A stretch of DNA of 33,583 nt from a virus (Duplodnaviria > Heunggongvirae > Uroviricota > Caudoviricetes). Under the pieces are notes generated by a model, which was not told the origin of the DNA, did not search any database, and worked only from the letters and a program-made list of their open reading frames with translations. The DNA lies in IMG/VR virus record IMGVR_UViG_2684622669_000021, positions 1 to 33,583 of that record. One strand, 5' to 3'. Position numbers and translations under genes: made by a program. Each line of letters begins with the position of its first letter. Position 1 is the first letter of the stretch. Below are positions 3,372 to 20,133 of this stretch, one piece after another.

Positions 3372-3376
3372 TTAAT

Positions 3377-5179: not shown

Positions 5180-7689
5180 TGCGGAATATCTCCGGAGAAT
5201 CTCTGACGCTTCTGTGTCAGATCAAGAACAACGGGAGAACCATCATCTTTTAGCAGATAACCAGTACCAAGTTTCACCAGGTACTGACTATCGCCGTAAC
5301 TTTGCAAACCATACTGACCAGGCGGTGTTTTTATCCCTGTGCCAACAACTTGTTCATTCCAAGCCTGATTAACCTGCTTATCGAATTGCTCTGCAGACAT
5401 TCCCCACGGCAAAAGAACATTCCCCATTCCGTTATAGTCATGCACGCCACCTGTAGCTACGTTAACAGCCTGTTTCCAGATATCATTGTCAATTTCGCCT
5501 GATACCACGCCTTTTTTCGCCATCACACCAGCGTAATAGTCCTTTGCGATCTCGTATGCCATTGATGCCCCCTGAGCATCACCAGCAAATGCATCCTTCA
5601 CCATGTCAGAAAACTCAAGGCGAAGATCAGCATCTTTAGGCATCGGAATACCTTTCGCGTCATCAGTACCTTTACGAGCCGCCGCGCCAGCAAGAATTGT
5701 CTGCGCAGCGGTTTCAGGAGACACGGAAACATCCGGATTAAACCAGTTTTTTTCTGCCAAAATACCACCTGGCTTATCCATCAGTATCCCGGCAACGGCA
5801 GCAGATGGAGCGTTGGCACTGATCTGCTGTAGTGCTGACATATACACCTGCCCACCACCAGTGCTCTGCCTGATGGTATCGAGATATGCTGCCTGTTGGG
5901 AAACGGGCGCATCACGAAAGAAAACACCGATCTGATTGGCCTCGTCTTTGGAAAAGAACGTCAGTGGAGTGCCATATGACTTAGCAAGGTCACTGACCTG
6001 AGCAGCACGCAAGGCAACGCTCTGTCCAAAGTTATCCTTATTGCTCATGTCGATAGGCTTTGCCTGTCCGGCGGCAAGAGAGAACTGTACAGGATCAGCC
6101 TGTCGCTGCTTTATCACCTGACTTGCAGCCGACACAACGTTGTCATAAAGAGCGGCTCGTGCCGCATAACCCTCCCCTGTCTCACCAGTATCCGGGCGTA
6201 ATTTCTCAACATATGCTGTAATGCTGCTTGTCGGCATGTTGCGGAAAGAGCCTATATACTGTCCGGCGATTTGCGTATTTCTGAACTCGGTATATCGCAG
6301 GTTTCCTTCTCTGACTCCATAAGCTGCAATAAAATCAGCCTCACCAGGTGGGTTAGGAAATTCAACGCCACGCATATACGCAGCTGTCGCATCGCGAACC
6401 TGGCTGTCAATCATCGTTTTATATTCAGCCTGCTGCTGCCGACGCAGTTGATCCGCCTGTCGCATAAAACTTGCCTGCGCCTCAGGAGATGCCGCATCGA
6501 ATGCTGCATTACCGGTATAGCGTTTGGTGTTGGTTGGAATTGTTGATAAACCAAGTGCTGCACTGACACCAGCAGTTAACTGCTGATCACTGTATGGCTG
6601 GCTACCGTTCTCATGATGGATAATGGCTGCACAAAGCGCCTTCAGGGTATCAGGATTAGATGCATCGAGAGGCTCATCAGCAGAAACGCCAAGTTGTTCG
6701 CACACTGCTTTGATATACGACATAGTGTCATTTTTATCAGTAGGCGGTGCCCAGCGATTAATTATCTCGCTGACTGTATCAATACCCTGCCGCTGATACG
6801 ACATCAGGTTCCGCCCTAATGCACGAATCCCGTGTTCAGGTGTTTCGAATTTAGCAAATCGACCATCATCACCGGTCTGGCCTACCCACGGATTAGTTTT
6901 GCTGTATTCGAGATTTCCTGGGTTATTGTTGCGTATGCCACGGGCACGATCGGAAGAGTCACTATCTGCTACAGCACGGCGAGCTCCAGCAGCAGTATCA
7001 CTTAACTCGCCATTACTTTGGATGAATGCGGTCGCATTGTTTGCCGACCACTGGGACAATGCGGCATCAGCAACCTTCTCTTTAAACTCTATTTTCTTGG
7101 CCTGGATTTGCTCGTCGCTCCAGCCATGCGCAATGCCGTAATCCTCAATTTGCTGGAAAGTTTGCTTATTAGCCAATACGTATGCGGCGTTGTCGCCATA
7201 CAATGCTGCGGCATTTTTACCATTGTTCAGCAGCGTCGCCTGAAACTGACCTTCTTCGTAGGCATTAATTTGCCCTATCTCGTGCCGCCCGGCCTGCGTA
7301 GTGAACTGAATGCGCTGCTGCTGCGCCTGCTGCATGAAAGCATTACGAGCCTGTTCATCCGGCAGCGACACAGCCAGTTGTTCGACCTGAGCATCAAACT
7401 GCTGCGTATACTCCTGACCTTTTCCAATAGCATTTTTCCCTTTCAGGTTAAGCAATCCTGTTTCAGGATTATTCAGCAGATCACTGCTTATCTGACTGAG
7501 GTTAAGAGATGCCTCCTGAGCCAGAGCGATATTGGCACGCTGTTTTGCCTGACCAAAAACATCAATTGCCTCTGTCCCTGCCCGAACAAAAGCATCACCA
7601 ATACCTGGCTGAGAAAACGTCTGCAAGCCTGCTGACTGAACTCCACGGCTCTGAACCTGACGGCCGGATACTGTTGGTACGACTGGCAT
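5176..7689 (-). CDS. Putative internal virion protein (837 aa) with a conserved central domain that may be cell-wall degrading
   Basis: Start reassigned to the ATG at 7687-7689 (MPVVPTVSGRQ...), which overlaps the upstream stop as TAATG and follows a GGAGGA RBS. Central segment GIRNNNPGNLEYSKTNPWVGQTGDDGRFAKFETPEHGIRALGRNLMSYQRQG looks enzyme-like; a muralytic role is inferred, not shown. Confidence 0.45.
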   Translation of the reverse strand: MPVVPTVSGRQVQSRGVQSAGLQTFSQPGIGDAFVRAGTEAIDVFGQAKQRANIALAQEASLNLSQISSDLLNNPETGLLNLKGKNAIGKGQEYTQQFDAQVEQLAVSLPDEQARNAFMQQAQQQRIQFTTQAGRHEIGQINAYEEGQFQATLLNNGKNAAALYGDNAAYVLANKQTFQQIEDYGIAHGWSDEQIQAKKIEFKEKVADAALSQWSANNATAFIQSNGELSDTAAGARRAVADSDSSDRARGIRNNNPGNLEYSKTNPWVGQTGDDGRFAKFETPEHGIRALGRNLMSYQRQGIDTVSEIINRWAPPTDKNDTMSYIKAVCEQLGVSADEPLDASNPDTLKALCAAIIHHENGSQPYSDQQLTAGVSAALGLSTIPTNTKRYTGNAAFDAASPEAQASFMRQADQLRRQQQAEYKTMIDSQVRDATAAYMRGVEFPNPPGEADFIAAYGVREGNLRYTEFRNTQIAGQYIGSFRNMPTSSITAYVEKLRPDTGETGEGYAARAALYDNVVSAASQVIKQRQADPVQFSLAAGQAKPIDMSNKDNFGQSVALRAAQVSDLAKSYGTPLTFFSKDEANQIGVFFRDAPVSQQAAYLDTIRQSTGGGQVYMSALQQISANAPSAAVAGILMDKPGGILAEKNWFNPDVSVSPETAAQTILAGAAARKGTDDAKGIPMPKDADLRLEFSDMVKDAFAGDAQGASMAYEIAKDYYAGVMAKKGVVSGEIDNDIWKQAVNVATGGVHDYNGMGNVLLPWGMSAEQFDKQVNQAWNEQVVGTGIKTPPGQYGLQSYGDSQYLVKLGTGYLLKDDGSPVVLDLTQKRQRFSGDIPQ

Positions 7690-8234
7690 TATAATCCTCC
7701 GGGTAATCTGGTTCCTGCTGCTGCCCCGATTGGCGCAGGGGTGCTTTGAGTAAACGGACTCCACGTCCCACCAAACATCTGGTACGCACCGTATGCCTTC
7801 AGAGGCGCAGTGAGCAATGTTGTTGCTGCTCCCACATTCCCCTGTTTACGGGCTGAACTGGCTTCTGCTTTATAGTTGGTAGCCTGAACCTGATAACCGT
7901 AAGCCTCGCGTTGCGCGTTATTCACCGTCGTCAGCGCATCAAGAGCGCCAAACTGAGCAGTGTCACCAAATATATCCAGCGCGTTACCGGTAGATAAATC
8001 AGCGCCGGTAGCCCCCATTGTCGCCGCTTGTGTGCCAAGCCGCTGCCGGGTCTCTCTGCGCCGTTGCTCAGCTTCAGCGTTACCTCTGTTTATTGCATCA
8101 TTTGCCTGAGCAGTGGCTATATCTGCGTTCGCTTCTGCAACCTTCGAGGCATACTTTCCCTGTTGGTACTGGGTGTATGCCTGAATGCCACTCATGGCAA
8201 GCATTGCGCCACCAGCAATAACCGGATCACACAT
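7689..8234 (-). CDS. Putative internal virion protein (181 aa), gp14-like by position
   Basis: TAATG overlap with the upstream gene. Size and position between the tail-tubular-like genes and the large internal proteins. Confidence 0.4.
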   Translation of the reverse strand: MCDPVIAGGAMLAMSGIQAYTQYQQGKYASKVAEANADIATAQANDAINRGNAEAEQRRRETRQRLGTQAATMGATGADLSTGNALDIFGDTAQFGALDALTTVNNAQREAYGYQVQATNYKAEASSARKQGNVGAATTLLTAPLKAYGAYQMFGGTWSPFTQSTPAPIGAAAGTRLPGGL

Positions 8235-8698
8235 TATTTTCTCTCCATGTGAAATCTGTGGAAATTAAGACCAAGAGCACCATAAGGCGCGGCTTCTTCA
8301 AGCCTGAATCCAAGCCAGTGCAGCCATGCTTTGGCAACATGGTTTCGCTCGTCGACGTAGTTTTCCAGGCGCGGATAAACTGCCAGCATCTGCTGCAATA
8401 CAGGGCGGCAGTGGCGCAGAAATGTCTTCTGATATTTTTCAATACGGCTGGTCCCGACCAGCCAGGGCGTACCATTGCCACCGATCATTGACGCCGGAGA
8501 TACGCCAAACATGGTTACCAGTTCTCCGTTCGCGAACCCTGACCAGGCCATAGTCGCAGTGCGCAGACCAACACGCAGCGCATCTTCGGTAGTCATCAGC
8601 GATACCGCATACAGTTCGTCAATATCAGCCTGACGAACATCCGGCAAAATCATCTGAAGATGCTCTTCGGTAGCGGGAATAATTTGAACATCGATCAT
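8234..8698 (-). CDS. Virion-associated protein (154 aa), gp13-like by position
   Basis: TGATG overlap with the upstream gene. Compact 154-aa ORF within the coupled operon. Confidence 0.35.
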   Translation of the reverse strand: MIDVQIIPATEEHLQMILPDVRQADIDELYAVSLMTTEDALRVGLRTATMAWSGFANGELVTMFGVSPASMIGGNGTPWLVGTSRIEKYQKTFLRHCRPVLQQMLAVYPRLENYVDERNHVAKAWLHWLGFRLEEAAPYGALGLNFHRFHMERK

Positions 8699-11169
8699 CA
8701 GAATCCCCCAACAGTAAAGCGAGGAATAACGGCAAGAACAGACAGCGGCAACGGGTCAAGCTGACGGATTTTTACACGTCCGTTTTTTCCCCAGTTACTG
8801 TCAAGTTTCACTTCTACTTTTCCGGTAGCGTCATCAACAGGATCATCGTAGAACTCGAATTCACGCTGTGGATATTCGTACCATTTACCGCCGGGCGTAG
8901 TCGCCCAGATGCCGCGACTGGCATTCACAACCAGAGTAACGGACAGGATCACCTGTTTTTTGTCCAGCAGCGTTTCCTGTCCGTTAATGTTGATATCCAG
9001 TGTTTCGAATTCAGCAGTTATTGGCAGGCCGATGTGCACTACAGCCCCCGGAGATTCCAGCGTGACTGCACCTCCGGAAACCACTTTCTGTGGTTCCACG
9101 TTCGCATCAGAGAGAATGTTTACGGTCTGGCCTTCAAGATGAGACAGGCCTCCAAATGTCCGGCGCGCCATCTGCCAGTTCGTGGTGGCCACATTCCTGA
9201 GGGATGGCGGGACGTTCCTGTTAGCACGAACCACTACAGCGGTATTGCTGGTTACAGAAATAATGTCGCAACGTAATTCTTTTGACACTTCATCGCCAGT
9301 ATCAGGAACAGTTCCGGTATAAGGGAACTGTAGTTGCGCACCGACATCACTACTGGTGAAGTACGCACCACCAGAAACACTGATTGTATATTCCGCGCGG
9401 TAATCCCATTCGCCAGAACCACCAGTGATTGTCATCGTTCTGTCAGACATATTTCTTCCATCATAGCTAAGGCCAGAATCAACAAAGAAAGCGTCTTCAT
9501 CGCAGGTAAATAAACGGCTGGACAGTCTCTCGATGTATCTCACTGTTTGCCCGTTAACGGTTCGGTTAACGACGAAATACACCGCATCTTCATTGCCTTC
9601 GCTGATACTGCATGTGCTTTCATATTTTCCGGTACTGGATTGTGGTGCCCATGCAAAAACCTGCTGATCACGCAAATAGGTCATCACCAGTAATTTACCG
9701 TCATCACGAATGCAGAAGGCGCTGGAGTAAGGGACAATAGAGAAGCACCAGTCAACAATGCTGTGCTTCTGAAAAAGATGATTGGCAAGGATAGTAAGGT
9801 CGTTCCCCTGATATCCGTCAACATCGAATGAGTAGGCCAGATCACGTACAACACTGCCTTTCTCCTGGACGAACAGAGCAATATTCGCCACAGCAATTGG
9901 TGGGACGTTGCTTGAGCCATTTGATCCCTGAGAGCTGAATGCAAATGATGATGGGGTTAACACTTTGTTCTGGTCGCCGGTGATGACGTACTCACCTCCG
10001 GAAGTCAGCGCCACCAGCGAACCAACATCAATCAGGTGGCGGATCTCATTAACCTGACGCCCGGCATAGGTGTAGATAATTCTGTCGTCATCCTGCGTAG
10101 GATTGCTTTTGCCAAAATCCTTATAATCCCCGGTACGGCTGGCCCAGATAGTCTGAGGGAACGCAGTCGATGCGGCGAAGTAAAGACGTTGTTGATAATA
10201 AACAACAGTGCCAGGATAACCATTAACACTGTTCCAGGCATATTTAGCCCATTTATAGCTGGCATTATCCTCGCCAACGACCTGCGAAGGGATATAGGAA
10301 ATCACCTCGGCAGTTGCAGTAGTGCCGTTTACAGCAGTGATACGGGCAATGCCAAACCCACTGTGCAGATACTCCCACTCAATGCCAGTATCATCATCAC
10401 CGGATCCGCCCCAGCCATCCCATGATGTGCCTTCTGTATGCGAAGGGCGCAAAGTGCCTGTTTTGCCTGCTGTAACGGCGCGATAGTAGTTACTGTCTGC
10501 ACGGCGAATATCGCCAATCGATGTACTCTTACTGGTTTCCCATACCGGCACTGAATCCACTGCAGGCTGTTCCAGATAGAACAATTTGCCTACCTGCTCC
10601 GCGCCAAAAATAGAGGCGCTTGCCGTTAACGTAATTGTCCCGGTGCTGGCGCTGGCATAAACCGTCACTGACTCGTCAATATTGATATCTTCAAATGGCC
10701 CGTTCTTCGTTATCACATCAACCAGTTGCCAGTTGTCATGCGCATAGCGGCGCAACTCCTTCGGCGGGTATGCCGGGTGAACCAGCGTAAGCACGTCTGC
10801 GCTTTGCGTGAATTTAATTCGGAACAGATCGGCTTCAGTATATGGCGTGGCAATTTCATAAATAACATTGCTGCTGTTCAGCACCAACGCACCATCTTTG
10901 ATAACGCGCATGTACTGGTGTCCGAACTCCAGAGCATAGGTCTGAACCGTCGAGAACTGGAACGGGATCAGACGGCATTTCCGATTTGGGTATTTGGCGG
11001 CACCGACAAAACGCGTACCAGGTCGATTCTCAACGCCGCCATACTGCCGCACGATAAAATTATCGCACTTGCGCAATGCCACCTGGTACTTCGCCATGTC
11101 GATACGTCCGTACAACGACGGTCCAATCTCACCACCAGCAAAGCTGGGCTGGATCCAACTGATAGCCAT
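8698..11169 (-). CDS. Tail tubular protein B-like (nozzle/hub) protein, 823 aa
   Basis: 823 aa, immediately downstream of the 201-aa adaptor-like gene. Size and order match T7 gp11/gp12. N-terminus MAISWIQPSFAGGEIGPSLYGR loosely resembles the gp12 N-terminus. Confidence 0.5.
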   Translation of the reverse strand: MAISWIQPSFAGGEIGPSLYGRIDMAKYQVALRKCDNFIVRQYGGVENRPGTRFVGAAKYPNRKCRLIPFQFSTVQTYALEFGHQYMRVIKDGALVLNSSNVIYEIATPYTEADLFRIKFTQSADVLTLVHPAYPPKELRRYAHDNWQLVDVITKNGPFEDINIDESVTVYASASTGTITLTASASIFGAEQVGKLFYLEQPAVDSVPVWETSKSTSIGDIRRADSNYYRAVTAGKTGTLRPSHTEGTSWDGWGGSGDDDTGIEWEYLHSGFGIARITAVNGTTATAEVISYIPSQVVGEDNASYKWAKYAWNSVNGYPGTVVYYQQRLYFAASTAFPQTIWASRTGDYKDFGKSNPTQDDDRIIYTYAGRQVNEIRHLIDVGSLVALTSGGEYVITGDQNKVLTPSSFAFSSQGSNGSSNVPPIAVANIALFVQEKGSVVRDLAYSFDVDGYQGNDLTILANHLFQKHSIVDWCFSIVPYSSAFCIRDDGKLLVMTYLRDQQVFAWAPQSSTGKYESTCSISEGNEDAVYFVVNRTVNGQTVRYIERLSSRLFTCDEDAFFVDSGLSYDGRNMSDRTMTITGGSGEWDYRAEYTISVSGGAYFTSSDVGAQLQFPYTGTVPDTGDEVSKELRCDIISVTSNTAVVVRANRNVPPSLRNVATTNWQMARRTFGGLSHLEGQTVNILSDANVEPQKVVSGGAVTLESPGAVVHIGLPITAEFETLDININGQETLLDKKQVILSVTLVVNASRGIWATTPGGKWYEYPQREFEFYDDPVDDATGKVEVKLDSNWGKNGRVKIRQLDPLPLSVLAVIPRFTVGGF

Positions 11170-11774
11170 CAGGACAACCTCGCAATGGTAAACTCATCAA
11201 CCGGTGGCTGTGGTTCCTGTGATTCATTCTGGCTATGCGAGCCAGCACTAAGAATCACGCGATTGTACATATTGAGGGCAAACGTACCGAGGTCTGCATT
11301 CCCAGTCAGCGCCATGTTAATAGCTGCCGCAAGACGCCAGGCCAGCGCCTCCATAAAAATGGCATCAAACATGTTCACATCTGTAACGCGAGAGACATAC
11401 TTGAGCCATGCCTGCGGCTGGTCTGTGTAGATCAATTTTCCTGTTCCGTTGGTGTCTGCACCAACTTCGTACTGAACGCGCATTGCTGCTGTTGGATTAC
11501 GTACACCAGGAAGCATAATTTCAGTAATGCGCAGACAATCGGACGGGTACTGGTACGCATATTCCCAGTCAGGCGGTGGATTGCTCGTATCTGCAAGCTC
11601 CACGCGTTTGGTAGCAAAGTTCCAGTCAAAATCAGAAAGAACAGCATCACGGCAGGCCTCAAAGTGCAGCGAACATTCCCCCGCTTCCTTGCTGGCTTCC
11701 GTCAGGCTGTTAATGCTGCGGCTGTTGCCAATATTGGACAGCGCACGATTGCAGATCTCTACTACAGAGGCCAT
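11169..11774 (-). CDS. Tail tubular protein A-like (adaptor/gatekeeper) protein, 201 aa
   Basis: 201 aa. The N-terminal pattern ...ICNRALSNIGNSRSINSLTEASKEAGEC...DFDWNF resembles the T7 gp11 N-terminus (...VNDILASIGEPPVSTLEGD...RGWTF). Start overlaps the upstream stop. Confidence 0.45.
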   Translation of the reverse strand: MASVVEICNRALSNIGNSRSINSLTEASKEAGECSLHFEACRDAVLSDFDWNFATKRVELADTSNPPPDWEYAYQYPSDCLRITEIMLPGVRNPTAAMRVQYEVGADTNGTGKLIYTDQPQAWLKYVSRVTDVNMFDAIFMEALAWRLAAAINMALTGNADLGTFALNMYNRVILSAGSHSQNESQEPQPPVDEFTIARLS

Positions 11775-12103
11775 TACTCCCCCCCATTGCCGTACAGAGT
11801 TTCAGCCGCTGATTTTTCTACATCCCCGGAAACAGGAGCGATCGCCATATCAGTGATCTGCAGATCGGCGCTGCGATTAACACCATCGTCAGTTTCTCTG
11901 GCAGACAGGCCTCGAATAACAGCCTTTGCAGTTATCATCACTTCTGTTCCGACGCCCTGAGGTTGCGCCTTCAGCTTATTCAATGTGTCGTTATTCAGCG
12001 TGATGCACAGCCCCCACGGGTATTCATCGCGAGTTCTGGTTTCTCCGCTCTCATCCTGGTAGCTGTCAGTGCCGGTTTTGAGGTTTACGAGTTCCATATA
12101 CAC
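11774..12103 (-). CDS. Small head/neck protein (109 aa), function unknown
   Basis: AGGAG RBS 6 nt upstream of the ATG at 12103. Lies between the capsid and tail-tubular genes. Confidence 0.5.
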   Translation of the reverse strand: MYMELVNLKTGTDSYQDESGETRTRDEYPWGLCITLNNDTLNKLKAQPQGVGTEVMITAKAVIRGLSARETDDGVNRSADLQITDMAIAPVSGDVEKSAAETLYGNGGE

Positions 12104-12147
12104 TCCTGCAATAAAGGGGCCGAAGCCCCTTGTCTGATTCGCGAGGC

Positions 12148-12483
12148 TTACACGCCCAGTTCTTTACGCTTATCTGCGATCTTCTCGCGGAGCGTTTCTG
12201 CTTTGGCGTTATGGTGTGGCTTCTCGTTAAAGAGCAATTCGTACTCTTCACGGAGCTTATCCAGTTCACCATCATCTGACGCATCGTTGATGATTTTGGT
12301 GCTGGTTGCTGCCATTGACACCTTTCCTGCAACTTTTGCTTTTGCCTGTCTGGCTGCATCGTTAACAGGTTCCAGTGCGCTACCAGGCTCACCTTCGTAT
12401 TCGATTTCTGCTCCCTCCGGCCACAGTGTGTTATGGATATGAGAGAGGCGCAGAACGCGGTATCTTGGTTTCTCACCAGACAT
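12148..12483 (-). CDS. Small charged head-associated protein (111 aa), function unknown
   Basis: Start placed at the ATG at 12481-12483, preceded by AAGGTGA. Lys/Glu-rich helical protein. The overlapping track ORF 12066..12476 in another frame is treated as spurious. Confidence 0.5.
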   Translation of the reverse strand: MSGEKPRYRVLRLSHIHNTLWPEGAEIEYEGEPGSALEPVNDAARQAKAKVAGKVSMAATSTKIINDASDDGELDKLREEYELLFNEKPHHNAKAETLREKIADKRKELGV

Positions 12484-12493
12484 CGATATCACC

Positions 12494-12931
12494 TTAACCA
12501 GTTATTTTTGAGCGGATCGGGTACGGTGTATTGGCATCAACATCCAGACTGATACCCGCAGTGAATTTGCCGGCCGTTAGTGGGCCAGTTGCGACGGAGT
12601 AGTTAACACGCAAATATCGCTGAACACCGGCAGGCACCTTTGCAGAGACAACTCGTTTACCTGCTGTCAGAGTGGCCTTTGCCAGTGCGCCACTATCATA
12701 AATAGTGGTCCAAGAGCTGTTATTCTCACTCGTCTGCAACTGGATGTTTACAGTTGCCTCACCACTTGCCGTGGCGGCTTCGTTAACCAGCGCCCAAAAC
12801 TCAAGCGGGTAACCCACGCCGATATCGCGACGGTTTCCATCAATTGGGCCGAGATCGATTACGTCAGTAGAAGCCGCGGTATCAGTTACCGCCTGTGCTT
12901 CGGAGAACATCAACAGTTTGTCGGTGATCAT
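12494..12931 (-). CDS. Putative capsid decoration/accessory protein (145 aa)
   Basis: GGAGAAAG RBS. Ser/Thr/Ala/Gly-rich composition typical of beta-rich capsid accessory proteins. Immediately downstream of the major capsid gene. Confidence 0.45.
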   Translation of the reverse strand: MITDKLLMFSEAQAVTDTAASTDVIDLGPIDGNRRDIGVGYPLEFWALVNEAATASGEATVNIQLQTSENNSSWTTIYDSGALAKATLTAGKRVVSAKVPAGVQRYLRVNYSVATGPLTAGKFTAGISLDVDANTPYPIRSKITG

Positions 12932-12982
12932 CTTCTTTCTCCATTAGTGGGTCTGTTACGACCCACAGGTTAATAACAGGCG

Positions 12983-13969
12983 TTACACCACGCGGGCTTC
13001 TGTTTCCAGAAGCGCATCAGTTTCACGGATTGGTACACCACGGAATGAAGTCCACCACTCGCCTTCAGTCTCTTTTACGCTGATAGCCAGAGATGTTTTC
13101 TCCAGAGACTGCAGATCAAGAGCCTGGCCTACAGTGCGGTTCATGTAGAACACCGGGCGGCCCATGCCACGGTTTGGAATGCGATGCAGTGCTTTAACCA
13201 TCAACTTCGCAATATTTGCGGCAGAGGAAGGTTCTGAAAGATTGCTGACATCGATGTTTGCAATGCGAACAACATAACGCCAGTCACGCAGAACAAGTCC
13301 GTTGTCCCATTTGTAATGGGTGCGATAGCCTTCGTACTTGCCGCCATTAGCATCTTCCAGTGTCACCTGGCCTTTATCTTCCATCTGAATGCCAGCCTTC
13401 TGCCCTTTCGGGAAGATGCCATGCACGGTGTTTTCTCCCCACACTACTAACCAGATTGAGGTGTTATCTGTACCCGTGCCACCAGCATCAATGATGTTCT
13501 GAGCATTACCCGCAGACAGGCTGGAATAGCGGGAGGACAGTCCCATAAACTGCTGAGGGTTAACGCTGGAATCACCATAAAACAGCGTCTGCGCCATCTG
13601 CTGATTCATCGCTTCAATAAATGCGCGGTCTTCAGACAGGCGGAATTCGGCGGTATTACCGTTCAGATCAGCCAGTGACTTATCGACTTCAGCATAGGTT
13701 TCCAGCATGCCAACGGAGTCGGTGACCTGCACTGTGGTTGATTTGCTTGGCTGTACGCCATAGTTCAGCAAACGCCAGGTAGCTGAAGGTAAACCAGAAC
13801 GAATGGTGGTTCGGTGTCCGGTAGGAAGGTTCCCTTCGACAAAAGGCATATCCTGAAGGATCGGGTTAGTTTGACCGAGAAGCTCGATAATCTTATCGAC
13901 TTTCCCGTTTTGATCGACGCGCTTACCCCAGTCAGCCAGCGTTAGCGCAGTTAAGCCTTTAACAGCCAT
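12983..13969 (-). CDS. Major capsid protein (328 aa)
   Basis: Position right after portal and scaffold. Size typical of HK97-fold capsid proteins. Strong RBS (AGAGAGGAAATAACA-ATG). Confidence 0.7.
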   Translation of the reverse strand: MAVKGLTALTLADWGKRVDQNGKVDKIIELLGQTNPILQDMPFVEGNLPTGHRTTIRSGLPSATWRLLNYGVQPSKSTTVQVTDSVGMLETYAEVDKSLADLNGNTAEFRLSEDRAFIEAMNQQMAQTLFYGDSSVNPQQFMGLSSRYSSLSAGNAQNIIDAGGTGTDNTSIWLVVWGENTVHGIFPKGQKAGIQMEDKGQVTLEDANGGKYEGYRTHYKWDNGLVLRDWRYVVRIANIDVSNLSEPSSAANIAKLMVKALHRIPNRGMGRPVFYMNRTVGQALDLQSLEKTSLAISVKETEGEWWTSFRGVPIRETDALLETEARVV

Positions 13970-13983
13970 TGTTATTTCCTCTC

Positions 13984-14679
13984 TTATTTGCCATAGAGCA
14001 CTTCGGCCGCACTACGCTGGCCTTCATTACCACCGGTGACCATGCCATCTTCAGACATCGCCTTTCCGATTTTCACGAACGTTTTGACCAGATCAGGGTG
14101 ATTACCCAGTCCGGTTGTGTTCAGATATTCTTTGAGTTCAGGTGTCCCGAACTGGTCAAGCGCACGCTGTGCGGCGCTAAGGTTAGAAATCAACTTGTCG
14201 CCACCGATTTCTTTGTCAGCTTTTACATCAGCAGCCCACTGCTCGGTCGTTTTCTGCCAGGCTTCTGCCTGACGCTGCTGCACACCTACCAGAATCTTCG
14301 GATAAGCATCAACCAGCTTTTGCGCTTGCTCGTTGGTCAGGTTAAGTTCTCGCGCTACCGGCTCGAATTCCTTCAACGCATCTGTATCCAGCTCTACGCC
14401 TTCGGCAGCATGAAATTGGTACTTCTCCGGCGCACCATCTGGTTTATCGCCGTCCTTTTTTTCATCCTGCTTATCGTTTTCAAGCTTTTTGTCATCAGCA
14501 GGTTTATCGCCATCAGCAACAGGTTGTGGCTTATCACCTTCCTGTTGTGATGGATCACCAACTGGAGCAGGGTTATCACCTGCAGGCGCTGACGGTTCTG
14601 ACGCAGCCGGAGCTGCTCCACCATCGACTGGTTGCTCATTGCAAAGACGGCGATACAGCAAACGCTCAAATAAATTCAT
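13984..14679 (-). CDS. Scaffolding protein (231 aa)
   Basis: Lies between portal and capsid. Acidic Pro/Asp/Lys-rich low-complexity N-terminus (PAASEPSAPAGDNPAPVGD...DGDKPADDKKLENDKQDEKKDGDKPDG) followed by a helical domain. Start reassigned to the ATG at 14677-14679 after an AGGAG RBS. Confidence 0.65.
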   Translation of the reverse strand: MNLFERLLYRRLCNEQPVDGGAAPAASEPSAPAGDNPAPVGDPSQQEGDKPQPVADGDKPADDKKLENDKQDEKKDGDKPDGAPEKYQFHAAEGVELDTDALKEFEPVARELNLTNEQAQKLVDAYPKILVGVQQRQAEAWQKTTEQWAADVKADKEIGGDKLISNLSAAQRALDQFGTPELKEYLNTTGLGNHPDLVKTFVKIGKAMSEDGMVTGGNEGQRSAAEVLYGK

Positions 14680-14681
14680 GA

Positions 14682-14978
14682 TCACTCCTGTTCACTGGCC
14701 TCTTTGGCCATCTTCAAATACTGTTCAGGGCAATGCGCCATAACGCGCTGAAACAGTTCCAGCGCCAGATTGCGTTGCCCCTCATTAAATGCCATTGCCA
14801 TAGCGTCCATCGGTGAGATAGCGGAAAACACACGGCCTTTCTCCAGCACCGACCAGACAACGCGACGCCCCTGTTCACTGCTCATGACAAAGCGAATGTC
14901 ATCAATTTCACGCTGTGCCATGTCACGTTGCTTACGGGCGTTTTCTTCTTTCAGTTGATCGTCTTCGTAATCTGTCAT
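14682..14978 (-). CDS. Small head-assembly-associated protein (98 aa), function unknown
   Basis: ATGA overlap with the portal stop. Acidic N-terminus. Confidence 0.5.
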   Translation of the reverse strand: MTDYEDDQLKEENARKQRDMAQREIDDIRFVMSSEQGRRVVWSVLEKGRVFSAISPMDAMAMAFNEGQRNLALELFQRVMAHCPEQYLKMAKEASEQE

Positions 14979-16654
14979 TGTGATTGCCCACCCTGACCAC
15001 TAACTGCATTCACCATAGCTGACAAAACACTCGGATCCGAAGTTTTAGCTTCGCTTAGCGTCTTGGCACCCTGTGCCGCCGCCATCCCCATCGCCATCAT
15101 TTGTTGCTGCTGTTGCTGCTGTGCCCGTTGCTGGCGAGCCTGCTCAACCTGTTCCTGCGGAACAATGACGGTTGGAGACACTCCGGACATATCAGCGAAT
15201 GCATCGATCGCCTGATCAACGTTGAGTTTGTCGAGAGCTTCTGGTTTCGCTTGCGCAAGTTGACCAATGAAGTTAACCGTGGACGCCAGACTGGACAGGC
15301 CGATAGACTTCTGCGCCTGAGCCATGACGGAAATGTATTCGACCTTCAGGGGCATGCCTTCCATCGCGTCAGGCGGTGGCGGAAGCATGTTTTTACGCAC
15401 CATCATCGAGAAAGCGCGGTCAATGAGAGGATTAAGACATTCATCGTTCAGACGCTCCAGAACCGGCCCCAACATCAGAAGTTTTTCTTCTTTCATTTCG
15501 ATCACCGCTTCAACAGGCATCGAGCGGGTATTGATGTTCTGTAACATCATGAACAGATCGACAAAGTAGGCGCTGTTAATGATTTGACGAGTGTCCTGAA
15601 TGTCTGCCACCAAATCTGCTGTACTGGGGTTAACCAGATAAGCAGGCCTGAAACCATCCTGACCAGTAATCTGATCGATATACGTGATGTCGCCAGGAAG
15701 AAGGGAGGCACGCTGATTCTTGAGGGAAGTCGGAGCAACCATCGGCGGATTGGTGGCTTTATCAATCAACTGCGACTTGCGCTTCTGGAGAAGCTGCAAT
15801 GCCTTAACAGGTCCAAGCGCCAGCATGCCCGGGCATGATGATCCATAAACATCTTCGCCGTTAACTTCCCAGCGCGGAGCCATAATTGGAAACTCATCGA
15901 ATCCGGATTCACGTAACAACTTGTCGTTGTCGCCGCCAACCTCGTAATAAACCGATTTGAATGGCTTGTTCTTGCTATCCAGCTTCGATGTATCGCGGTC
16001 AATGTTCGGGTAAACCGAATGCATAACTTCAATCCACTTCTCGTAGGTGCCGCTTTCCCACATGCTTTTTACGGATTCGCTAACGTTATTTAGCCCGAAC
16101 TCCTGAACAAGCTGACGAACAGTCATAGAGAACTTGCGAAAACAGGTGTCCACACTGCCACGAGGTGAGTTAGCCAGGTAGTAACTGCCTATCGGGAATG
16201 GCATTGTGCGAATGATGTCCTCGTCATCCTCCAGCACCGCCATTGCACCAGTGCTGTATGTACCGAGGCTTCCGTATAACTGCGGCAGCGACTGGTAGAG
16301 ATTCGACTTATTGAACATATCGTTCATGCGGTTCTGCACCGCCTCAAGCCACAACTTAACAGGTCCATAATCCATCATTTCAGGATCTGGCGTAGCCAGG
16401 CGAAACCACGGACGCGCGGGGCTTGTGATGCCTGACATCATGCCGCTGGCGAGAGTGCGCGCCGCCATAGTCCCGGTCGAATCAATAATGCGTGTATTGC
16501 GCCGATCGTTACGGTTGACCTCAGAAGTCAGAAAGCGGGAACCACGCGGGTTGATGTAATCACTCAACTCGCGCCAGTGCGGCTCGAACGACTGACGCTC
16601 GCTTTCAAGTTGTGCGAACTGTTTGTTCAATCGCTCTTTAGTTGTTTCCGCCAT
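14975..16654 (-). CDS. Portal (head-to-tail connector) protein, 559 aa
   Basis: First large gene of the head module. C-terminal Gln/Ala/Met-rich tail (...QRAQQQQQQQMMAMGMAAAQGAKTL...) resembles the T7 gp8 connector C-terminus. AGGAGT RBS. Confidence 0.8.
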   Translation of the reverse strand: MAETTKERLNKQFAQLESERQSFEPHWRELSDYINPRGSRFLTSEVNRNDRRNTRIIDSTGTMAARTLASGMMSGITSPARPWFRLATPDPEMMDYGPVKLWLEAVQNRMNDMFNKSNLYQSLPQLYGSLGTYSTGAMAVLEDDEDIIRTMPFPIGSYYLANSPRGSVDTCFRKFSMTVRQLVQEFGLNNVSESVKSMWESGTYEKWIEVMHSVYPNIDRDTSKLDSKNKPFKSVYYEVGGDNDKLLRESGFDEFPIMAPRWEVNGEDVYGSSCPGMLALGPVKALQLLQKRKSQLIDKATNPPMVAPTSLKNQRASLLPGDITYIDQITGQDGFRPAYLVNPSTADLVADIQDTRQIINSAYFVDLFMMLQNINTRSMPVEAVIEMKEEKLLMLGPVLERLNDECLNPLIDRAFSMMVRKNMLPPPPDAMEGMPLKVEYISVMAQAQKSIGLSSLASTVNFIGQLAQAKPEALDKLNVDQAIDAFADMSGVSPTVIVPQEQVEQARQQRAQQQQQQQMMAMGMAAAQGAKTLSEAKTSDPSVLSAMVNAVSGQGGQSQ

Positions 16655-16668
16655 TTCAATGACTCCTG

Positions 16669-16875
16669 TTACTGACCAAGCAGCGTTTTACCGCTGGTAT
16701 TAGCGGTTGATGTGTCGCCCTGAGAACCGGTAAGCAGCGTAGAACTACGACCAGCAGCAGCGCGACGGCGACGTGTTTCTTCGTCGCGGGCATCAACAAC
16801 GGCGGCATCCTGCTCCTGTGGTGCTGCCTGAACTTCTGGTGTTGCAGGCACTGATGGTGAGCTACCCATGCACAT
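16669..16875 (-). CDS. Small low-complexity protein (68 aa) upstream of portal
   Basis: GGAG RBS before the ATG at 16875. Ala/Pro/Gln/Arg-rich composition gives weak coding support. Confidence 0.35.
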   Translation of the reverse strand: MCMGSSPSVPATPEVQAAPQEQDAAVVDARDEETRRRRAAAGRSSTLLTGSQGDTSTANTSGKTLLGQ

Positions 16876-17301
16876 ATCAATGACTCCGTACGCAATTAAA
16901 TTATTACCAATTTAACCATATATGATTTATTTATCGTAGACAGTTGACATTTAACGCACGAATTATTACCTTTCAGGTAACTAAAGAGTTCATTCCGGTT
17001 ACTAACCTGACTGGCTTGTCGTTAAATTGAACAGGTGGAGTGAGCTTTTATTTTGAGCAGTACGGCGTATGGCACATGCGCCGATAGCGGTCTGGATACG
17101 TTTAAGGGGCACCCTCCCTTGCTCGGGCAAACGAACCAGGTAGCCGGAATGTGCAAGTCGAGCGGTTTTATTCCGCGCACAGGGTTCACCATCCCGGCGA
17201 TTCGGTGTGACACCTCGGAAGAGACGAGGGTACAACGATGAGAGCATTTATGGAGCCGCGATAAAGTGTGGTGCCTTAACAGGCTAAGTGCTCTCAGCGT
17301 T

Positions 17302-17378
17302 GTGGCATTAGCTCAGTTGGACAGAGCAACCGCCTTCTAAGCGGTTGGTCGCAGGTTCGAATCCTGCATGCCGCGCCA
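17302..17378 (+). tRNA. tRNA-Arg, anticodon UCU (reads AGA), with encoded CCA
   Basis: Manual cloverleaf: acceptor GTGGCAT/ATGCCGC (one G-U pair); D-stem GCTC/GAGC; anticodon stem ACCGC/GCGGT with loop CTTCTAA (U33, anticodon TCT, A37); variable loop TGGTC; T-arm GCAGG-TTCGAAT-CCTGC; discriminator G; CCA. Related to but distinct from chromosomal argU. Confidence 0.9.
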
Positions 17379-17421
17379 GAATCACGCCTAAGGACCGTGA
17401 TGCCAGAAGTTCCAGGGGCTT

Positions 17422-17464
17422 GGCGGTGATGGTTTCCCTTGAAGGACTATCACCGCCCTTTTTA
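17422..17464 (+). terminator. Intrinsic terminator downstream of the tRNA
   Basis: Stem GGCGGTGAT...ATCACCGCC (9 bp) followed by CTTTTT. Confidence 0.7.
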
Positions 17465-17541
17465 CAGCAGGACGCCATTGCGATGACTTCATGCTGTAAA
17501 CCAGTACAGCCACGGAAGGCATAACTCATAGCTTCCAGTTC

Positions 17542-17566
17542 GCCCGGTTCGCCGGGCATTTTTTTA
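17542..17566 (+). terminator. Second intrinsic terminator
   Basis: Hairpin CCCGG-TTCG-CCGGG followed by CATTTTTTT. Confidence 0.7.
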
Positions 17567-17635
17567 CTTGAATTTTACCCTCAACAAACCAACATAGAAC
17601 TTGGCATTTGCCATAACTTTCACAAGGAGTCAGCC

Positions 17636-17935
17636 ATGAATGGTTGGAATAGAAAAAAGACTCAATATTTAGCTGAGTGCATCCACGAACACGAAAAAGC
17701 CGACGGAGTAACCTACGATCCTAACGGTATGGTTAGCTACTGGAACACAAAATATAACCTCGTTCCTGCTGAACAGTTGCCAGCATTACAAAATCAGGTA
17801 TCTCTCGAATTAGAAGCTCTACGCGGTGCTGAGACTAACCATGTAACAATTAGCAACATTGGTGCCGCTAAGTTTGGATTCGACTCTGTAATAGGGAATC
17901 ATCTACCTAACTTCGATCCGGAGCCAGTTAAGTAA
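17636..17935 (+). CDS. Orphan moron protein (99 aa), unknown function, opposite strand to the late operon
   Basis: Strong RBS (AAGGAGTCAGCC-ATG). More AT-rich than the flanks. Ends 11 nt from the convergent terL stop. No family recognised from MNGWNRKKTQYLAECIHEHEKADGVTYDPNGMVSYWNTKYN... Confidence 0.6.
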   Translation: MNGWNRKKTQYLAECIHEHEKADGVTYDPNGMVSYWNTKYNLVPAEQLPALQNQVSLELEALRGAETNHVTISNIGAAKFGFDSVIGNHLPNFDPEPVK

Positions 17936-17946
17936 TTTGCTGACCA

Positions 17947-19422
17947 TTATGCATAAGGGTCATAATCCGTTATGGCCCTTCCCTGCTGGCTTTGCTGTCC
18001 TGGTATATTTATGCGTTTCGAGACCGGGAAAGCAAACGTCAGCAGTAGCGCATCGCCTTTACCAGGAGAACGCCCAAGACGCTCTTTGATATCTTCCTTC
18101 GGTTCGATAACGATTTTACCGTCCACACGAACTTTGTACTCTGCCGCCGACAGGTCGTCTGCAGTTTCCTGGTCATCCAGCATGCCGCCCAGCCTCAGCC
18201 ATGTCTTACATGAGTTGAACATCTCCCCACGCTTGTTAAGCATCTGCGGGTCAGTGGACGCACCGCTGAACGGAACAAGTTGCCATGTACGTCCCCAGCC
18301 ATCACCGATTGACTTCAAACCGGTTCCGTAACCGAAGTCGATGAACACCGCGTCAGCCTGGTACTGGTCTTCAAAGTCAGCGATACGCTTCGCCATAATC
18401 AGATCGTCGGTGGTCTTGTTGCCGGTCCACAGCACCTTACTGTGCAGCCCCTGCCGCAGGTATATCACCGCGTCATCAACACCGGAGTATGCAGGGTCAA
18501 CGCCGATTATCACCGGAGCATGTGCCACCTGCGCAGCAGTTACCACCCGTTTCATTGCCTCGTCAGTAAGACCGGTAGGGATAAACTGCAATTCAGATGC
18601 ATCAGGGAATATACCGCGCACACGGATTTTAACGAAGTCGCTGTCTTCCCCGTAGTCATCAACCCATTTCTGCAACTGCTGTTTGTTGGTGCCTTCCACC
18701 GTCCGGCTGTCAATCTGCGCAGTTTTCCAGCGGTGTTTATATTTGCGGAAACATTCGCGGAAACGTCCGGTATTACGCGTCGGGTTTCCGAACGCCACCC
18801 AGATAATCTCAGTGTCTTCGTCCGTTAGCGCACCCTCGGCAACTTCCCACACCAGATCCGCAATGTTCGACGCTTCATCGAATACCACGATGATGCGTTT
18901 GCGCTCGTTGTGTAGTCCGGCGAATGCCTCAGTGTTGTGCTCAGACCAGGGGATTGCGTCAGCTCGCCACCGCTTGTCGTGCCCAGGATCATTGCTGTAC
19001 ATCGCGGTAGCGGTACAGGTAAACCAGTCTTTCGTGATAGCAAGGTTCGACCACTTGATAATTTCCGGCCAGGTCTTCGTTCGTAGCTGGTTGTCGGTGT
19101 TGGCGGTCACCACGACCTTACAATCCTCGCAAGTGGACATGCCCCAGTTGATGAGCATTGAGATGAATGCGGATTTACCAATACCGTGACCAGAAGCACG
19201 TGCCAGCATAAGCGGCTGATAACGCGTCTCTGGATTCTGCAGGTGATCACGTATCTCTCGGAACGCATCGGCCTGCCACTGACGTGGACCGGTAGCATGT
19301 GCCAGTTCAGTCCCCTCTTCCCCCCAAGGGAACGCATAGAGGGCATAGCCAAGCGGATCGTGAGTGAACCCTGCAATATCTTCGATTAACTGCTCTTCAG
19401 GAGATAACGCTGCATCTGTCAC
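17947..19422 (-). CDS. Terminase large subunit (491 aa)
   Basis: Walker A-like ARASGHGIGKS, Walker B-like IIVVFDEAS, and a C-terminal nuclease-type acidic segment (IGVDPAYSG...). ATGA overlap with terS. Confidence 0.85.
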   Translation of the reverse strand: MTDAALSPEEQLIEDIAGFTHDPLGYALYAFPWGEEGTELAHATGPRQWQADAFREIRDHLQNPETRYQPLMLARASGHGIGKSAFISMLINWGMSTCEDCKVVVTANTDNQLRTKTWPEIIKWSNLAITKDWFTCTATAMYSNDPGHDKRWRADAIPWSEHNTEAFAGLHNERKRIIVVFDEASNIADLVWEVAEGALTDEDTEIIWVAFGNPTRNTGRFRECFRKYKHRWKTAQIDSRTVEGTNKQQLQKWVDDYGEDSDFVKIRVRGIFPDASELQFIPTGLTDEAMKRVVTAAQVAHAPVIIGVDPAYSGVDDAVIYLRQGLHSKVLWTGNKTTDDLIMAKRIADFEDQYQADAVFIDFGYGTGLKSIGDGWGRTWQLVPFSGASTDPQMLNKRGEMFNSCKTWLRLGGMLDDQETADDLSAAEYKVRVDGKIVIEPKEDIKERLGRSPGKGDALLLTFAFPVSKRINIPGQQSQQGRAITDYDPYA

Positions 19423-20015
19423 TGATTACCATCCTGACGTTCTTTGAGTCGCTTCCTAGCTGCCGCTATGCGATCAGCAATTGTCACATTCACATTAACA
19501 TCCAAGCGTTCTTTGAATGCGTTGACGTCGACGTGCTTACCAATCAGTTCTAGGTTCTTCACCTTGTCAGGCCATTTAATTTTTTTGAGGATTGTCTCTA
19601 TCGAGTCCTCGTTCATGTTCATGATGGTCGATGACAGATCAAAGCCGCTAAGCGTAGTGCGCCATATTTTCGGCCACTCGCGGATTGGCTTAAGGCTCCC
19701 ATCGTCGTTGAGGATATCAATCACGTCCATCTGGTCGATCTCCACCAGGCGCATGAGAACGTAATCAGCACTGACGCGCATTCGTTTGTTGCGCTCCTCC
19801 ATCAACTCGGCAATCCGTTTTTGAATGCGTTCATCGCGCATCATGACACTGGCTTTAACTGCCGCTGTATTTGGGGAGAATCCTGCGTTAATCGCAGCCT
19901 GAGTCTGGTTTTCAGGCGTTTTGATGTATGACTGGCAATAAGCCTCCTGCATTGCTGTGAGCGGCTTAAATTGCGTTGATTTGCGTTTATAGGTTTTAGG
20001 TTCAGCAGGCATCAT
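19419..20015 (-). CDS. Terminase small subunit (198 aa)
   Basis: N-terminal signature ...LTAMQEAYCQSYIKTPENQTQAAINAGFSPNTAAVKASVMMRDERIQKRIAEL matches the terminase small-subunit family pattern. Start reassigned to an internal ATG; the track ORF carries a 26-aa extension. Confidence 0.8.
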   Translation of the reverse strand: MMPAEPKTYKRKSTQFKPLTAMQEAYCQSYIKTPENQTQAAINAGFSPNTAAVKASVMMRDERIQKRIAELMEERNKRMRVSADYVLMRLVEIDQMDVIDILNDDGSLKPIREWPKIWRTTLSGFDLSSTIMNMNEDSIETILKKIKWPDKVKNLELIGKHVDVNAFKERLDVNVNVTIADRIAAARKRLKERQDGNQ

Positions 20016-20133
20016 AACCACCCTGGTAATTGTTACCGTTGTGGTAATAGTAACATGCAAAATAAAGCCGCCATAGTTGGCGACAGTATTCAAAACCCAT
20101 CAAATTCATCATGCATAATCTACTCGTGACATG

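Follow-up and report, generated by a model that had tools for sequence, protein, structure and literature searches.

A conserved pseudoknotted RNA between the terminase and portal genes of an epsilon15-like prophage, found also in lambdoid and P1-type phages

Why should a temperate phage interrupt its late operon with about one kilobase of DNA read from the other strand? The question is raised by a 33,583-nucleotide (nt) stretch of viral DNA (IMG/VR record IMGVR_UViG_2684622669_000021; the whole stretch is called the window below), an epsilon15/phiV10-like (Uetakevirus) prophage whose late genes lie on the minus strand and which carries, at 16876–17946, an island on the plus strand that splits terL, the large terminase gene, from the gp3-like and portal genes. 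An earlier note on this DNA had described the island as an unusual insertion of 1.07 kb holding a tRNA-Arg(UCU), two intrinsic terminators and an orphan gene for a 99-residue protein (ORF99). All of these features, and the interruption itself, were found where that note had placed them; overlooked, however, was a large structured RNA that makes up most of what the island contains. The segment 16980–17300, which had been passed over as spacer, exceeds the rest of the island in both conservation and structure. We describe this RNA here and propose, at somewhat better than an even chance, that the island is a conserved, repressor-controlled early "RNA operon" in which a core RNA controls read-through into downstream cargo genes in cis.

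The 420 nt between the gp3-like gene and the tRNA are GC-rich, and comparison of the fold of 16985–17301 with those of shuffled sequences gave z = −3.58 for the plus strand and −1.29 for the minus strand. Covariance model R1 recognised here, as a single copy in the window, a core RNA with the following parts.

17060–17231, plus strand: core RNA, 172 nt, pseudoknotted (model R1, 140.5 bits, E ~1e-42)
17063–17083, plus strand: core hairpin P1
Between P1 and the 19-mer, plus strand: core arm P2, variable
17139–17157, plus strand: invariant 19-mer GGUAGCCGGAAUGUGCAAG
17182–17184/17192–17194 (stem) and 17187–17190/17204–17207 (loop), plus strand: core pseudoknot
17213–17229, plus strand: core hairpin P5, with loop GAAGAGA

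The structure was assessed on a seed alignment (A4) of 30 sequences and on a model-based alignment of 75 distinct sequences. In the seed alignment, 95.5% of the cells were paired, as against 27–48% in controls with a slid register; compensatory changes were present at 12 of the 25 pairs, and none of 500 shuffles reached the observed score. The 75 model-aligned sequences gave much the same picture, with 95.2% of cells paired and compensatory changes at 12 of 21 pairs (194 compensatory cells). Arm P2 is closed in the seed alignment by covarying pairs (CYGG with CCRG and CCAC with GUGG), and the pseudoknot there is of the H type, with a 4-bp stem and a loop, UCACC, that pairs with a downstream GGUG; in a variant form UAACC pairs with GGUU. 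The core helices contained 71 G.U cells versus 3 A.C cells, an excess which identifies the plus strand as the RNA strand and which, together with the minus-strand z of −1.29, ruled out a palindrome at the level of DNA as the explanation of the helices. Across the family the core measures about 150–180 nt, and its lengths occur in all three mod-3 classes, showing that the region is non-coding; coding potential of 17000–17300 was rejected on the same ground, the overlapping open reading frame (ORF) calls of some records also not being conserved. Besides the tRNA, no Rfam 15 family matched the window at its gathering score, and nothing credible was seen at E ≤ 5 in 16600–18000. Nor was there an Rfam 15 match at the element in 18 diverse loci, where only tRNAs, C4, isrK and int-alpA were matched elsewhere, and neither the signature sequences nor a description of the core RNA was found in the literature searched.

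Sensitive blastn searches with the region upstream of the tRNA reached unrelated temperate phages at 77–83% identity, and almost all of the matches were unannotated. They included lambdoid phages (cdtI, mEp460, 2H10, Stx2c- and Stx2a-converting phages, and mEp390), the P1 group (P1, P7, D6, SJ46, and RCS47), a Klebsiella lytic phage, and a phage listed for Stenotrophomonas. A 19-mer common to all of them, GGTAGCCGGAATGTGCAAG, occurred in more than 120 IMG/VR contigs. With a 201-nt core query, 1843 of 5426 complete Escherichia coli genomes (~34%) were matched, with at most 4 copies per genome and 554 places on plasmids; in 40 sampled records there was no RefSeq annotation under the core. About one third of complete E. 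coli genomes, then, carry a conserved pseudoknotted RNA that is unrecognised by Rfam 15 or RefSeq, and it is carried by P1-type plasmid prophages and Stx2-converting phages, among others. When one genome per species was scanned with a different search key, model-confirmed copies were obtained from Kosakonia, Phytobacter, Citrobacter, Klebsiella, Kluyvera, Enterobacter, Pseudescherichia, Superficieibacter, Escherichia spp., and Ca. Erwinia dacicola; the matches were all from Enterobacterales save one 1.75-kb contig binned as Bacillota, and the 19-mer was intact in 21 of the 22. We concluded from these sequence comparisons that the core represents a widely distributed RNA family that Rfam 15 lacks, one whose helices covary and whose strand is defined.

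Some individual copies deserve mention. Full-scoring cores were present in the 1.75-kb contig, from a metagenome-assembled genome labelled Bacillota (L165), and in Stenotrophomonas phage BUCT709 (L019), for both of which mis-binning or a mis-assigned host is the likely explanation. The core of E. coli HB37 (L001 3461–3629) is a mosaic, with a phiV10-like 5′ half and a 3′ half identical to the mEp460 type, including the compensated UAACC/GGUUUGA pseudoknot, and implies that phage families have recombined within the RNA. One viral contig (L037) holds two tandem cores on the same strand, at 3998–4155 and 4805–4960, with some 650 nt between them; in the second, the near-invariant 19-mer is altered at two positions (GGAAGCTGGAATGTGCAAG).

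The core does not stand by itself. As read from the sequence and from comparison with relatives, 16980–17464 forms one structured unit; the transcript predicted from its operator-overlapped promoter, about 490–590 nt long, would comprise in order M0, core, P6, tRNA-Arg, H, T1, and then T2. The parts outside the core are these.

16944–16972, plus strand: predicted sigma-70-type promoter, −35 TTGACA (16944–16949), 17-nt spacer, −10 TACCTT (16967–16972), from sequence reading
16965–16981, no strand assigned: 17-bp operator palindrome ATTACCTTTCAGGTAAC, overlapping the −10, by alignment to the epsilon15 site
16986–17047, plus strand: module M0, a long hairpin with the recurrent motif GUCGUUAAAU (17018–17027), a helix in the minimum-energy fold
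17233–17301, plus strand: P6 (module M1), a long stem CAACGAUGAGAGCA/UGCUCUCAGCGUUG around a variable insert, ending at the tRNA 5′ end
17302–17378, plus strand: tRNA-Arg(UCU) with encoded CCA (17376–17378), from ARAGORN and Rfam RF00005
17381–17401, plus strand: hairpin H, AUCACG...CGUGAU, directly 3′ of the tRNA or tRNA-like arm
17420–17464, plus strand: T1, intrinsic terminator, UUGGCGG...CCGCC and U-run, stem 17422–17457
17465–17541, plus strand: conserved spacer between T1 and T2, in epsilon15-like phages only (kept in epsilon15, SPN9TCW, and a Klebsiella phage)
17542–17565, plus strand: T2, strong GC hairpin with UUCG loop and seven U, stem 17542–17557

Transcription is predicted to start near 16979. 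Of 37 distinct epsilon15-like upstream regions, 34 had TTGAC[A/C]-N17-TACCTT/TACCCT as their best promoter match, and the overlapping operator ATTACCTTTCAGGTAAC lines up, column by column, with the epsilon15 sequence ATTACCTTTTAGGTAAT, which the epsilon15 record marks as a "repressor" binding site (L012 3322–3338). The contexts of 135 core loci were surveyed. About 67 of them lie directly downstream of a cI-type repressor gene and on its strand, about 44 lie in an epsilon15-type gap between terL and portal, and about 11–17 are P1-like, with a tRNA-Ile(CAT) immediately upstream and ban downstream. Predicted promoters lie 4–136 nt upstream of the RNA, at many lambdoid loci 4–52 nt (for example, TTGACA-16-CATAAT). 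The lambdoid promoter is overlapped by operator repeats common to the cro-cI region, and the combination of a strong promoter with shared cro-cI operators identifies the lambdoid site as the early-left promoter PL. The core there occupies the place of nutL-N in lambda and of putL in HK022; phage LLS, which is of the mEp460 type by its repressor and early-left genes, has no N homologue, and its authors guess that it uses a put-like RNA (Genome Research 2025, PMC12315714). In P1 the core lies alone between tRNA-Ile and ban, in the C1-controlled ban operon according to the P1 record. The genes that follow the core are ban in P1, yfdQ-type early genes in the lambdoid phages, and diverse small cargo genes in the epsilon15-like phages. 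Because repressor-linked promoters precede it in all three phage groups, we consider the RNA to be part of a repressor-controlled early transcript.

As a side observation, mEp460 (L015 206–394, minus strand) and an Stx2c phage (L016 276–464, minus strand) gave adjacent matches to the C4 antisense RNA and isrK upstream of an antirepressor gene. This pair is the P1/P7-type immI module, here in the early-right region of phages with the core RNA at PL.

Module M0 is an optional 5′ module of the P6 type, found in the window and in many relatives and absent from SPN1S-type phages. Its counterpart carries the label "RNaseIII, mRNA processing", on the other strand, in the epsilon15 GenBank record, which raises the possibility that RNase III processes the late mRNA of the minus strand at these hairpins; transcription of the late genes from terL would probably cross the island, since neither T1 nor T2 has a U-run on the minus strand. 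The strand asymmetry of G.U over A.C cells, a minus-strand fold no better than those of shuffles, and the occurrence of the element at places where no late operon lies opposite it leave this explanation scarcely any probability.

Downstream of the core, the closing stem of P6 is maintained by compensatory changes, and the module varied from 48 to 209 nt among 47 distinct sequences. A boxA-like UGCUCUY in the 3′ strand of P6 was considered and rejected, as these nucleotides are paired and their covariation departs from the boxA consensus. In the window P6 is followed by tRNA-Arg, on which ARAGORN (anticodon tct) and the Rfam covariance model (RF00005, 69.4 bits where the gathering score is 29, E = 2.5e-13) agree, upholding the tRNA call of the earlier note. 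Its A20, C35, and CCA end can be read in the sequence, A20 and C35 being arginine identity elements of tRNA. The copy in the window has G71 (17371) in a U2.G71 wobble pair, and most related copies have A71 (U2-A71). In other phages the arm after P6, closed by GUUGUGG...CCACAAC, is a complete tRNA-Arg with CCA at 32 of 44 epsilon15-like loci; at the remaining 12, and in the lambdoid phages, it is only tRNA-like, with an acceptor-like stem and a D-arm-like GCGC-AGGCUGAU-GCGC, a CUUUUAA anticodon-like loop in one case, and N-CCA at the 3′ side in several. By this comparison tRNA-Arg is an exchangeable arm of a larger structured RNA, and the island serves as an example of a tRNA gene carried in that manner. 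That the structured region might be a mere leader or processing scaffold of the tRNA precursor is suggested by its abutting tRNA-Arg here and tRNA-Ile in P1; it is, however, very unlikely, as 67 lambdoid and 12 epsilon15-like loci have the core without a tRNA, and sequence and structure are kept across three phage families with compensatory changes.

Hairpin H recurs after the arm in epsilon15-like and lambdoid loci. T1 was present at 79 loci (48 of 60 lambdoid and 31 of 38 epsilon15-like) with covarying inner stems, and was absent from the P1-like loci; T2 was present at 30 of 35 epsilon15-like loci. Plus-strand terminator-like hairpins with a T-run were not above chance in the window (3 found versus 2.9 ± 1.6 in shuffles), and we take T1 and T2 to be real because they are conserved in related loci, not because of their number. 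The two terminators of the earlier note are thus backed by conservation; both, however, stand upstream of ORF99 and belong to the RNA unit, not to an orphan-gene segment, and T1, being conserved together with the core family, is best regarded as the RNA family's own 3′ end. A pseudoknot and near-invariant unpaired nucleotides upstream of an intrinsic terminator would also suit a riboswitch, in which the core would be the aptamer and T1 would respond to a metabolite or signal bound by it. Yet T1 begins at least ~190 nt past the end of the core, with variable modules and even a whole tRNA between them (the distance from the 19-mer to T1 is 246–918 nt), the downstream genes have no common function, and the alternative pairing of H with T1 is not conserved, so that we give a riboswitch very little credence. 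An attenuator in which hairpin H competes with T1 was rejected, the similarity of H and T1 in the window not being kept in other variants.

The genus-wide history of the island became clear from its relatives. More than 500 E. coli chromosomes, as well as phiV10, TL-2011b, and the O157 typing phages, have the region at about 98% identity, and recognisable forms of the island occur in SPN1S, Tyrion, Klebsiella phages, and epsilon15, the common layout having terS-terL on one strand, tRNA-Arg and one small gene on the other, and then gp3-portal. Positions 16876–17566 are genus backbone, with 80–99% identity between members. Homology to phiV10-type relatives ends at 17566, the base after the T-run of T2, and restarts at 17946, one base before the terL stop; these borders imply that only 17567–17945 is exchangeable. 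As judged by homology, the island is a genus-wide Uetakevirus backbone and not an insertion, and 17567–17945 is a hypervariable accessory slot between T2 and the terL stop, occupied in the window as follows.

17567–17945, no strand assigned: hypervariable cargo cassette (ORF99 and its own 69-nt 5′ region), from the homology break in relatives
17636–17935, plus strand: ORF99, 99 residues, a small helical protein, with ribosome binding site (RBS) AAGGAG at 17624–17629

The earlier note had called the presence of a tRNA and an orphan gene between terL and portal unusual, and had suggested looking for related phages in which the two genes adjoin without the segment. The epsilon15-like relatives compared have the island, and as first described the arrangement is an ordinary one for the genus: a phage tRNA, and an accessory slot which here holds a rare orphan allele. 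No head gene was found in the slot.

Among 35 epsilon15-like loci the slot varied in length by more than 1 kb and held at least 8 unrelated types of cargo. The commonest was the Gp49/Sf6-gp66 family (PF13876; Pfam match ~1e-34 in relatives); a 115-residue phrog_3163 protein and a DUF551 protein were encoded at some epsilon15-like loci, a protein resembling the Thoeris anti-defence protein Tad2 (PF11195, E = 4e-26) in a Klebsiella phage, and membrane or coiled-coil proteins of 200–280 residues, among others, elsewhere. PADLOC matches of the 260–280-residue cargo proteins were weak coiled-coil matches and were set aside. The slot resembles moron and anti-defence hotspots in that unrelated small genes alternate between conserved flanks and one allele is Tad2-like; whereas a classic moron has its own promoter and terminator, most alleles here start right after a terminator with a shared RBS. 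The enlarged slot of Tyrion (L011) also contains, downstream of the structured RNA, a match to the Rfam int-alpA RNA (4181–4245, plus strand; 44 bits against a gathering score of 35.8).

This placement of the cargo is the main reason for the role that we favour for the core. At 24 of the 30 epsilon15-like loci with T2, the cargo start codon lies 5–16 nt past the U-run of T2, and at 20 of those 24 an AAGGUGA RBS, shared among unrelated cargo genes, lies between T2 and the start. The cargo was on the RNA strand in the annotated examples examined. As there is no room for a promoter between T2 and the cargo start, most cargo would be expressed only by read-through of T1 and T2 from the RNA promoter; the lambdoid early-left genes, which lie beyond T1, would follow the same logic. 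With cargo and early genes thus placed behind terminators, a role of the core in cis in read-through is favoured. We propose that infection or induction frees the operator, whereupon the unit would be transcribed early. RNase P would cut at G17302 and, after trimming to the encoded CCA, yield tRNA-Arg for phage AGA codons; the same cut would give a defined 3′ end to an RNA consisting of the core and P6. The core RNA would act in cis on the transcribing polymerase, in the manner of HK022 put although unrelated to it, and would set the share of transcription that passes T1 and T2 into early accessory, probably anti-defence, cargo.

Carried further, this proposal would make the core an antiterminator acting in cis, or a leader that modifies the polymerase, of a new class distinct in origin from put, that replaces N/nut in N-less lambdoid phages (including Stx2-converting phages) and governs both the ban operon of P1 and the epsilon15-like slot, the tRNA or tRNA-like arm serving as its processing site; this stronger form we offer tentatively, as a possibility and not an expectation. 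The core is like HK022 put in lying just past a repressor-controlled early promoter of an N-less temperate enterobacterial phage, in being followed by terminators and same-strand genes, and in needing no adjacent protein partner. HK022 put is an RNA of about 70 nt with two stems (PMC9378689). The core, in contrast, has about 150–180 nt, a pseudoknot and extra modules, and occurs once per phage and not twice; with filters off, model R1 found only noise in the HK022 genome (≤8.7 bits), and hence no homology to putL or putR. What the core RNA does provide is a way of making testable how N-less lambdoid phages pass their early terminators.

The same architecture would serve a stable non-coding RNA acting in trans, processed like a tRNA and ended by T1, which, as a decoy or sponge, might engage a host protein, a nuclease, or a tRNA-directed defence, the cargo being expressed by leak or from promoters of its own. 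The pseudoknot, a single-stranded stretch of 19 nt that is nearly invariant, tRNA-like arms with encoded CCA at several loci, and a conserved terminator of its own all suit such an RNA, as do the early placement next to an anti-defence slot and the P1 core, which stands alone directly after a tRNA. Large prophage RNAs offer a precedent: GOLLD and ROOL typically lie beside tRNA genes, and GOLLD sometimes around one. Like them the core belongs to a large multi-domain structured RNA of phages and prophages; unlike them it is smaller, regularly heads an early operon at its 5′ end, and is found in Enterobacterales, and the Rfam models of the two do not match it; its hosts are not Lactobacillales or rumen or lake bacteria. 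The core is, however, strictly co-oriented with downstream genes that lack promoters, it always lies at the 5′ end of an operon and is not a free-standing gene, and no partner protein is conserved beside it. We regard action in trans as possible but rather doubtful.

Several observations weigh against control of read-through in cis. Promoter use, the start of transcription, RNase P processing, and an effect of the core on termination are predictions that we infer from sequence, and a build from modules with a tRNA-like arm would suit a stable RNA acting in trans just as well. In P1 the core is about 2.4 kb from the promoter and there is no T1. In the epsilon15-like phages read-through would run antisense into terL. 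There is usually one core per phage, with no partner in the early-right operon, and the absence of N is known from one published relative, the carrier phages not having been searched for N here. The core also seems dispensable, since that of epsilon15 is cut down (44 bits; L012 3545–3628) and a distant relative (L009) has a P6-type module and arm without a core. Epsilon15 is a deletion derivative: missing from it are P6 and the tRNA arm entire, together with the 3′ half of the core and the left half of T1; core and terminator were therefore lost together in one event. Finally, the cassette in the window brings 69 nt of its own sequence upstream of ORF99, homologous to that upstream of a lambdoid copy which must be self-transcribed, so that ORF99 may be independent of read-through.

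Processing of the kind proposed has parallels, as RNase P cuts the C4 RNAs of P1 and P7 and the CI RNA of P4 from early repressor-linked transcripts. The unit is like these in being an early repressor-linked transcript in which tRNA-like features would define RNA ends. It is unlike C4 in that the Rfam C4 and isrK models miss the core RNA, although they match elsewhere in two lambdoid loci.

ORF99 itself has the character that the earlier note ascribed to it. Its GC content is 0.43–0.45 versus ~0.52 in the flanks, its RBS lies 6 nt 5′ of the ATG, and it ends 11 nt from the convergent terL stop. It is rare: 5.8 billion sequences yielded 5 clusters, an exhaustive profile search yielded ten representatives at 50% identity, and only one of the 5426 complete E. 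coli genomes (strain HB37) matched the whole of 16600–18000 including ORF99. Residues R6, A13, W36, N37, V43, R63, and G87 are kept in homologues down to about 32% identity. Nonsynonymous differences were far below synonymous ones, both against a lambdoid copy (pN 0.124, pS 0.953) and against a distant epsilon15-like copy (dN 0.354, dS 2.28), from which we concluded that ORF99 is a real gene under purifying selection; its reading as an accessory gene is borne out. One homologue occupies the same terL/portal slot in the distant relative L009. Another, 76% identical, lies in the nin region of lambdoid phages, between a large serine recombinase gene and a PAPS-reductase-like gene (L005–L008, 3508–7303); this copy stands alone on the strand opposite to its neighbours, with about 960 nt of AT-rich non-coding DNA upstream.

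Two AlphaFold models of ORF99 (pLDDT ~71) had three main confident helices, a short low-confidence fourth helix, and a low-confidence tail or C-terminal third, and Foldseek searches with them against PDB and BFVD gave nothing at E ≤ 0.001. ORF99 had no Pfam match at E ≤ 1, including Tad2 (PF11195) and Gp49/Sf6 gp66 (PF13876), no PHROG match, a PADLOC match at chance level only (E = 0.046), and no tblastn match among phage records. An anti-defence role may nevertheless be considered, the lead being a slot that relatives also use for a Tad2-like gene, and this immediate-early cargo slot, filled by a Tad2-like gene in some phages and by ORF99 in the window, merits a search for further anti-defence genes. 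No terminator follows ORF99, there being only the 11 nt to terL. A palindrome, TTGGCATTTGCCAT, at 17601–17614, about 20 nt before the ORF99 start and likewise before that of the lambdoid copy (L005 5969–5982), may bind a regulator or belong to a promoter borne by the cassette. A sigma-70-like promoter scan and inspection by eye revealed no convincing −35/−10 pair between T2 and ORF99; ORF99 may have a weak promoter of its own.

These properties bear on the view from which the question started, that the whole 1.07-kb segment is a recent opposite-strand insertion with ORF99 as an independently transcribed accessory, defence, or anti-defence gene. The base composition and rarity of ORF99, its movement between phage types, the similarly opposite orientation of the lambdoid nin copy, and the 69-nt upstream region would all accord with that view. 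For the segment as a whole it is refuted by the conservation of 16876–17566 across the genus, only 17567–17945 having been swapped; moreover, the terminators precede ORF99 and the scan found no sigma-70-like promoter between T2 and the gene. We consider it improbable, and retain the reading of the island as an RNA operon with an exchangeable cargo slot.

A classic role in codon supply is plausible for tRNA-Arg in that operon and would accord with early expression under repressor control. Of the 653 arginine codons in the ORFs of the window, 72 are AGA (6.9 per 1000 codons), and the usage in E. coli, about 2 per 1000, is some three times lower. AGA is absent from the capsid, portal, and terminase genes and concentrated in tail, injection, and early genes, so that demand for the phage tRNA-Arg is uneven across phage genes. 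The tRNA is like other phage tRNA-Arg(UCU) species for rare AGA in its anticodon, A20, C35, and the AGA use of the phage; it is unlike the usual ones in being embedded as an arm of a larger transcript, with a tRNA-like arm in its place in relatives. When AGG was counted with AGA, the two codons were absent or nearly so in the capsid, portal, and terminase genes and frequent in the tail and injection genes and several early genes (window 897–12476 versus 12494–20021).

The island is flanked by the following late genes.

19419–20093, minus strand: terS, late gene
17947–19422, minus strand: terL, large terminase; right flank, convergent with ORF99
16669–16875, minus strand: gp3-like gene of 68 residues (phrog_831); left flank, divergent from the RNA promoter
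14975–16654, minus strand: portal gene, next after the gp3-like gene

Between the gp3-like gene and the RNA promoter, 16880–16940 is AT-rich and highly conserved (ATTAAATTATTACCAATTTAACCATATATGATTTATTT) and contains a second TTACC half-site; near the counterpart of this segment the epsilon15 record places an IHF site. A divergent promoter for gp3-portal may lie within 16880–16940.

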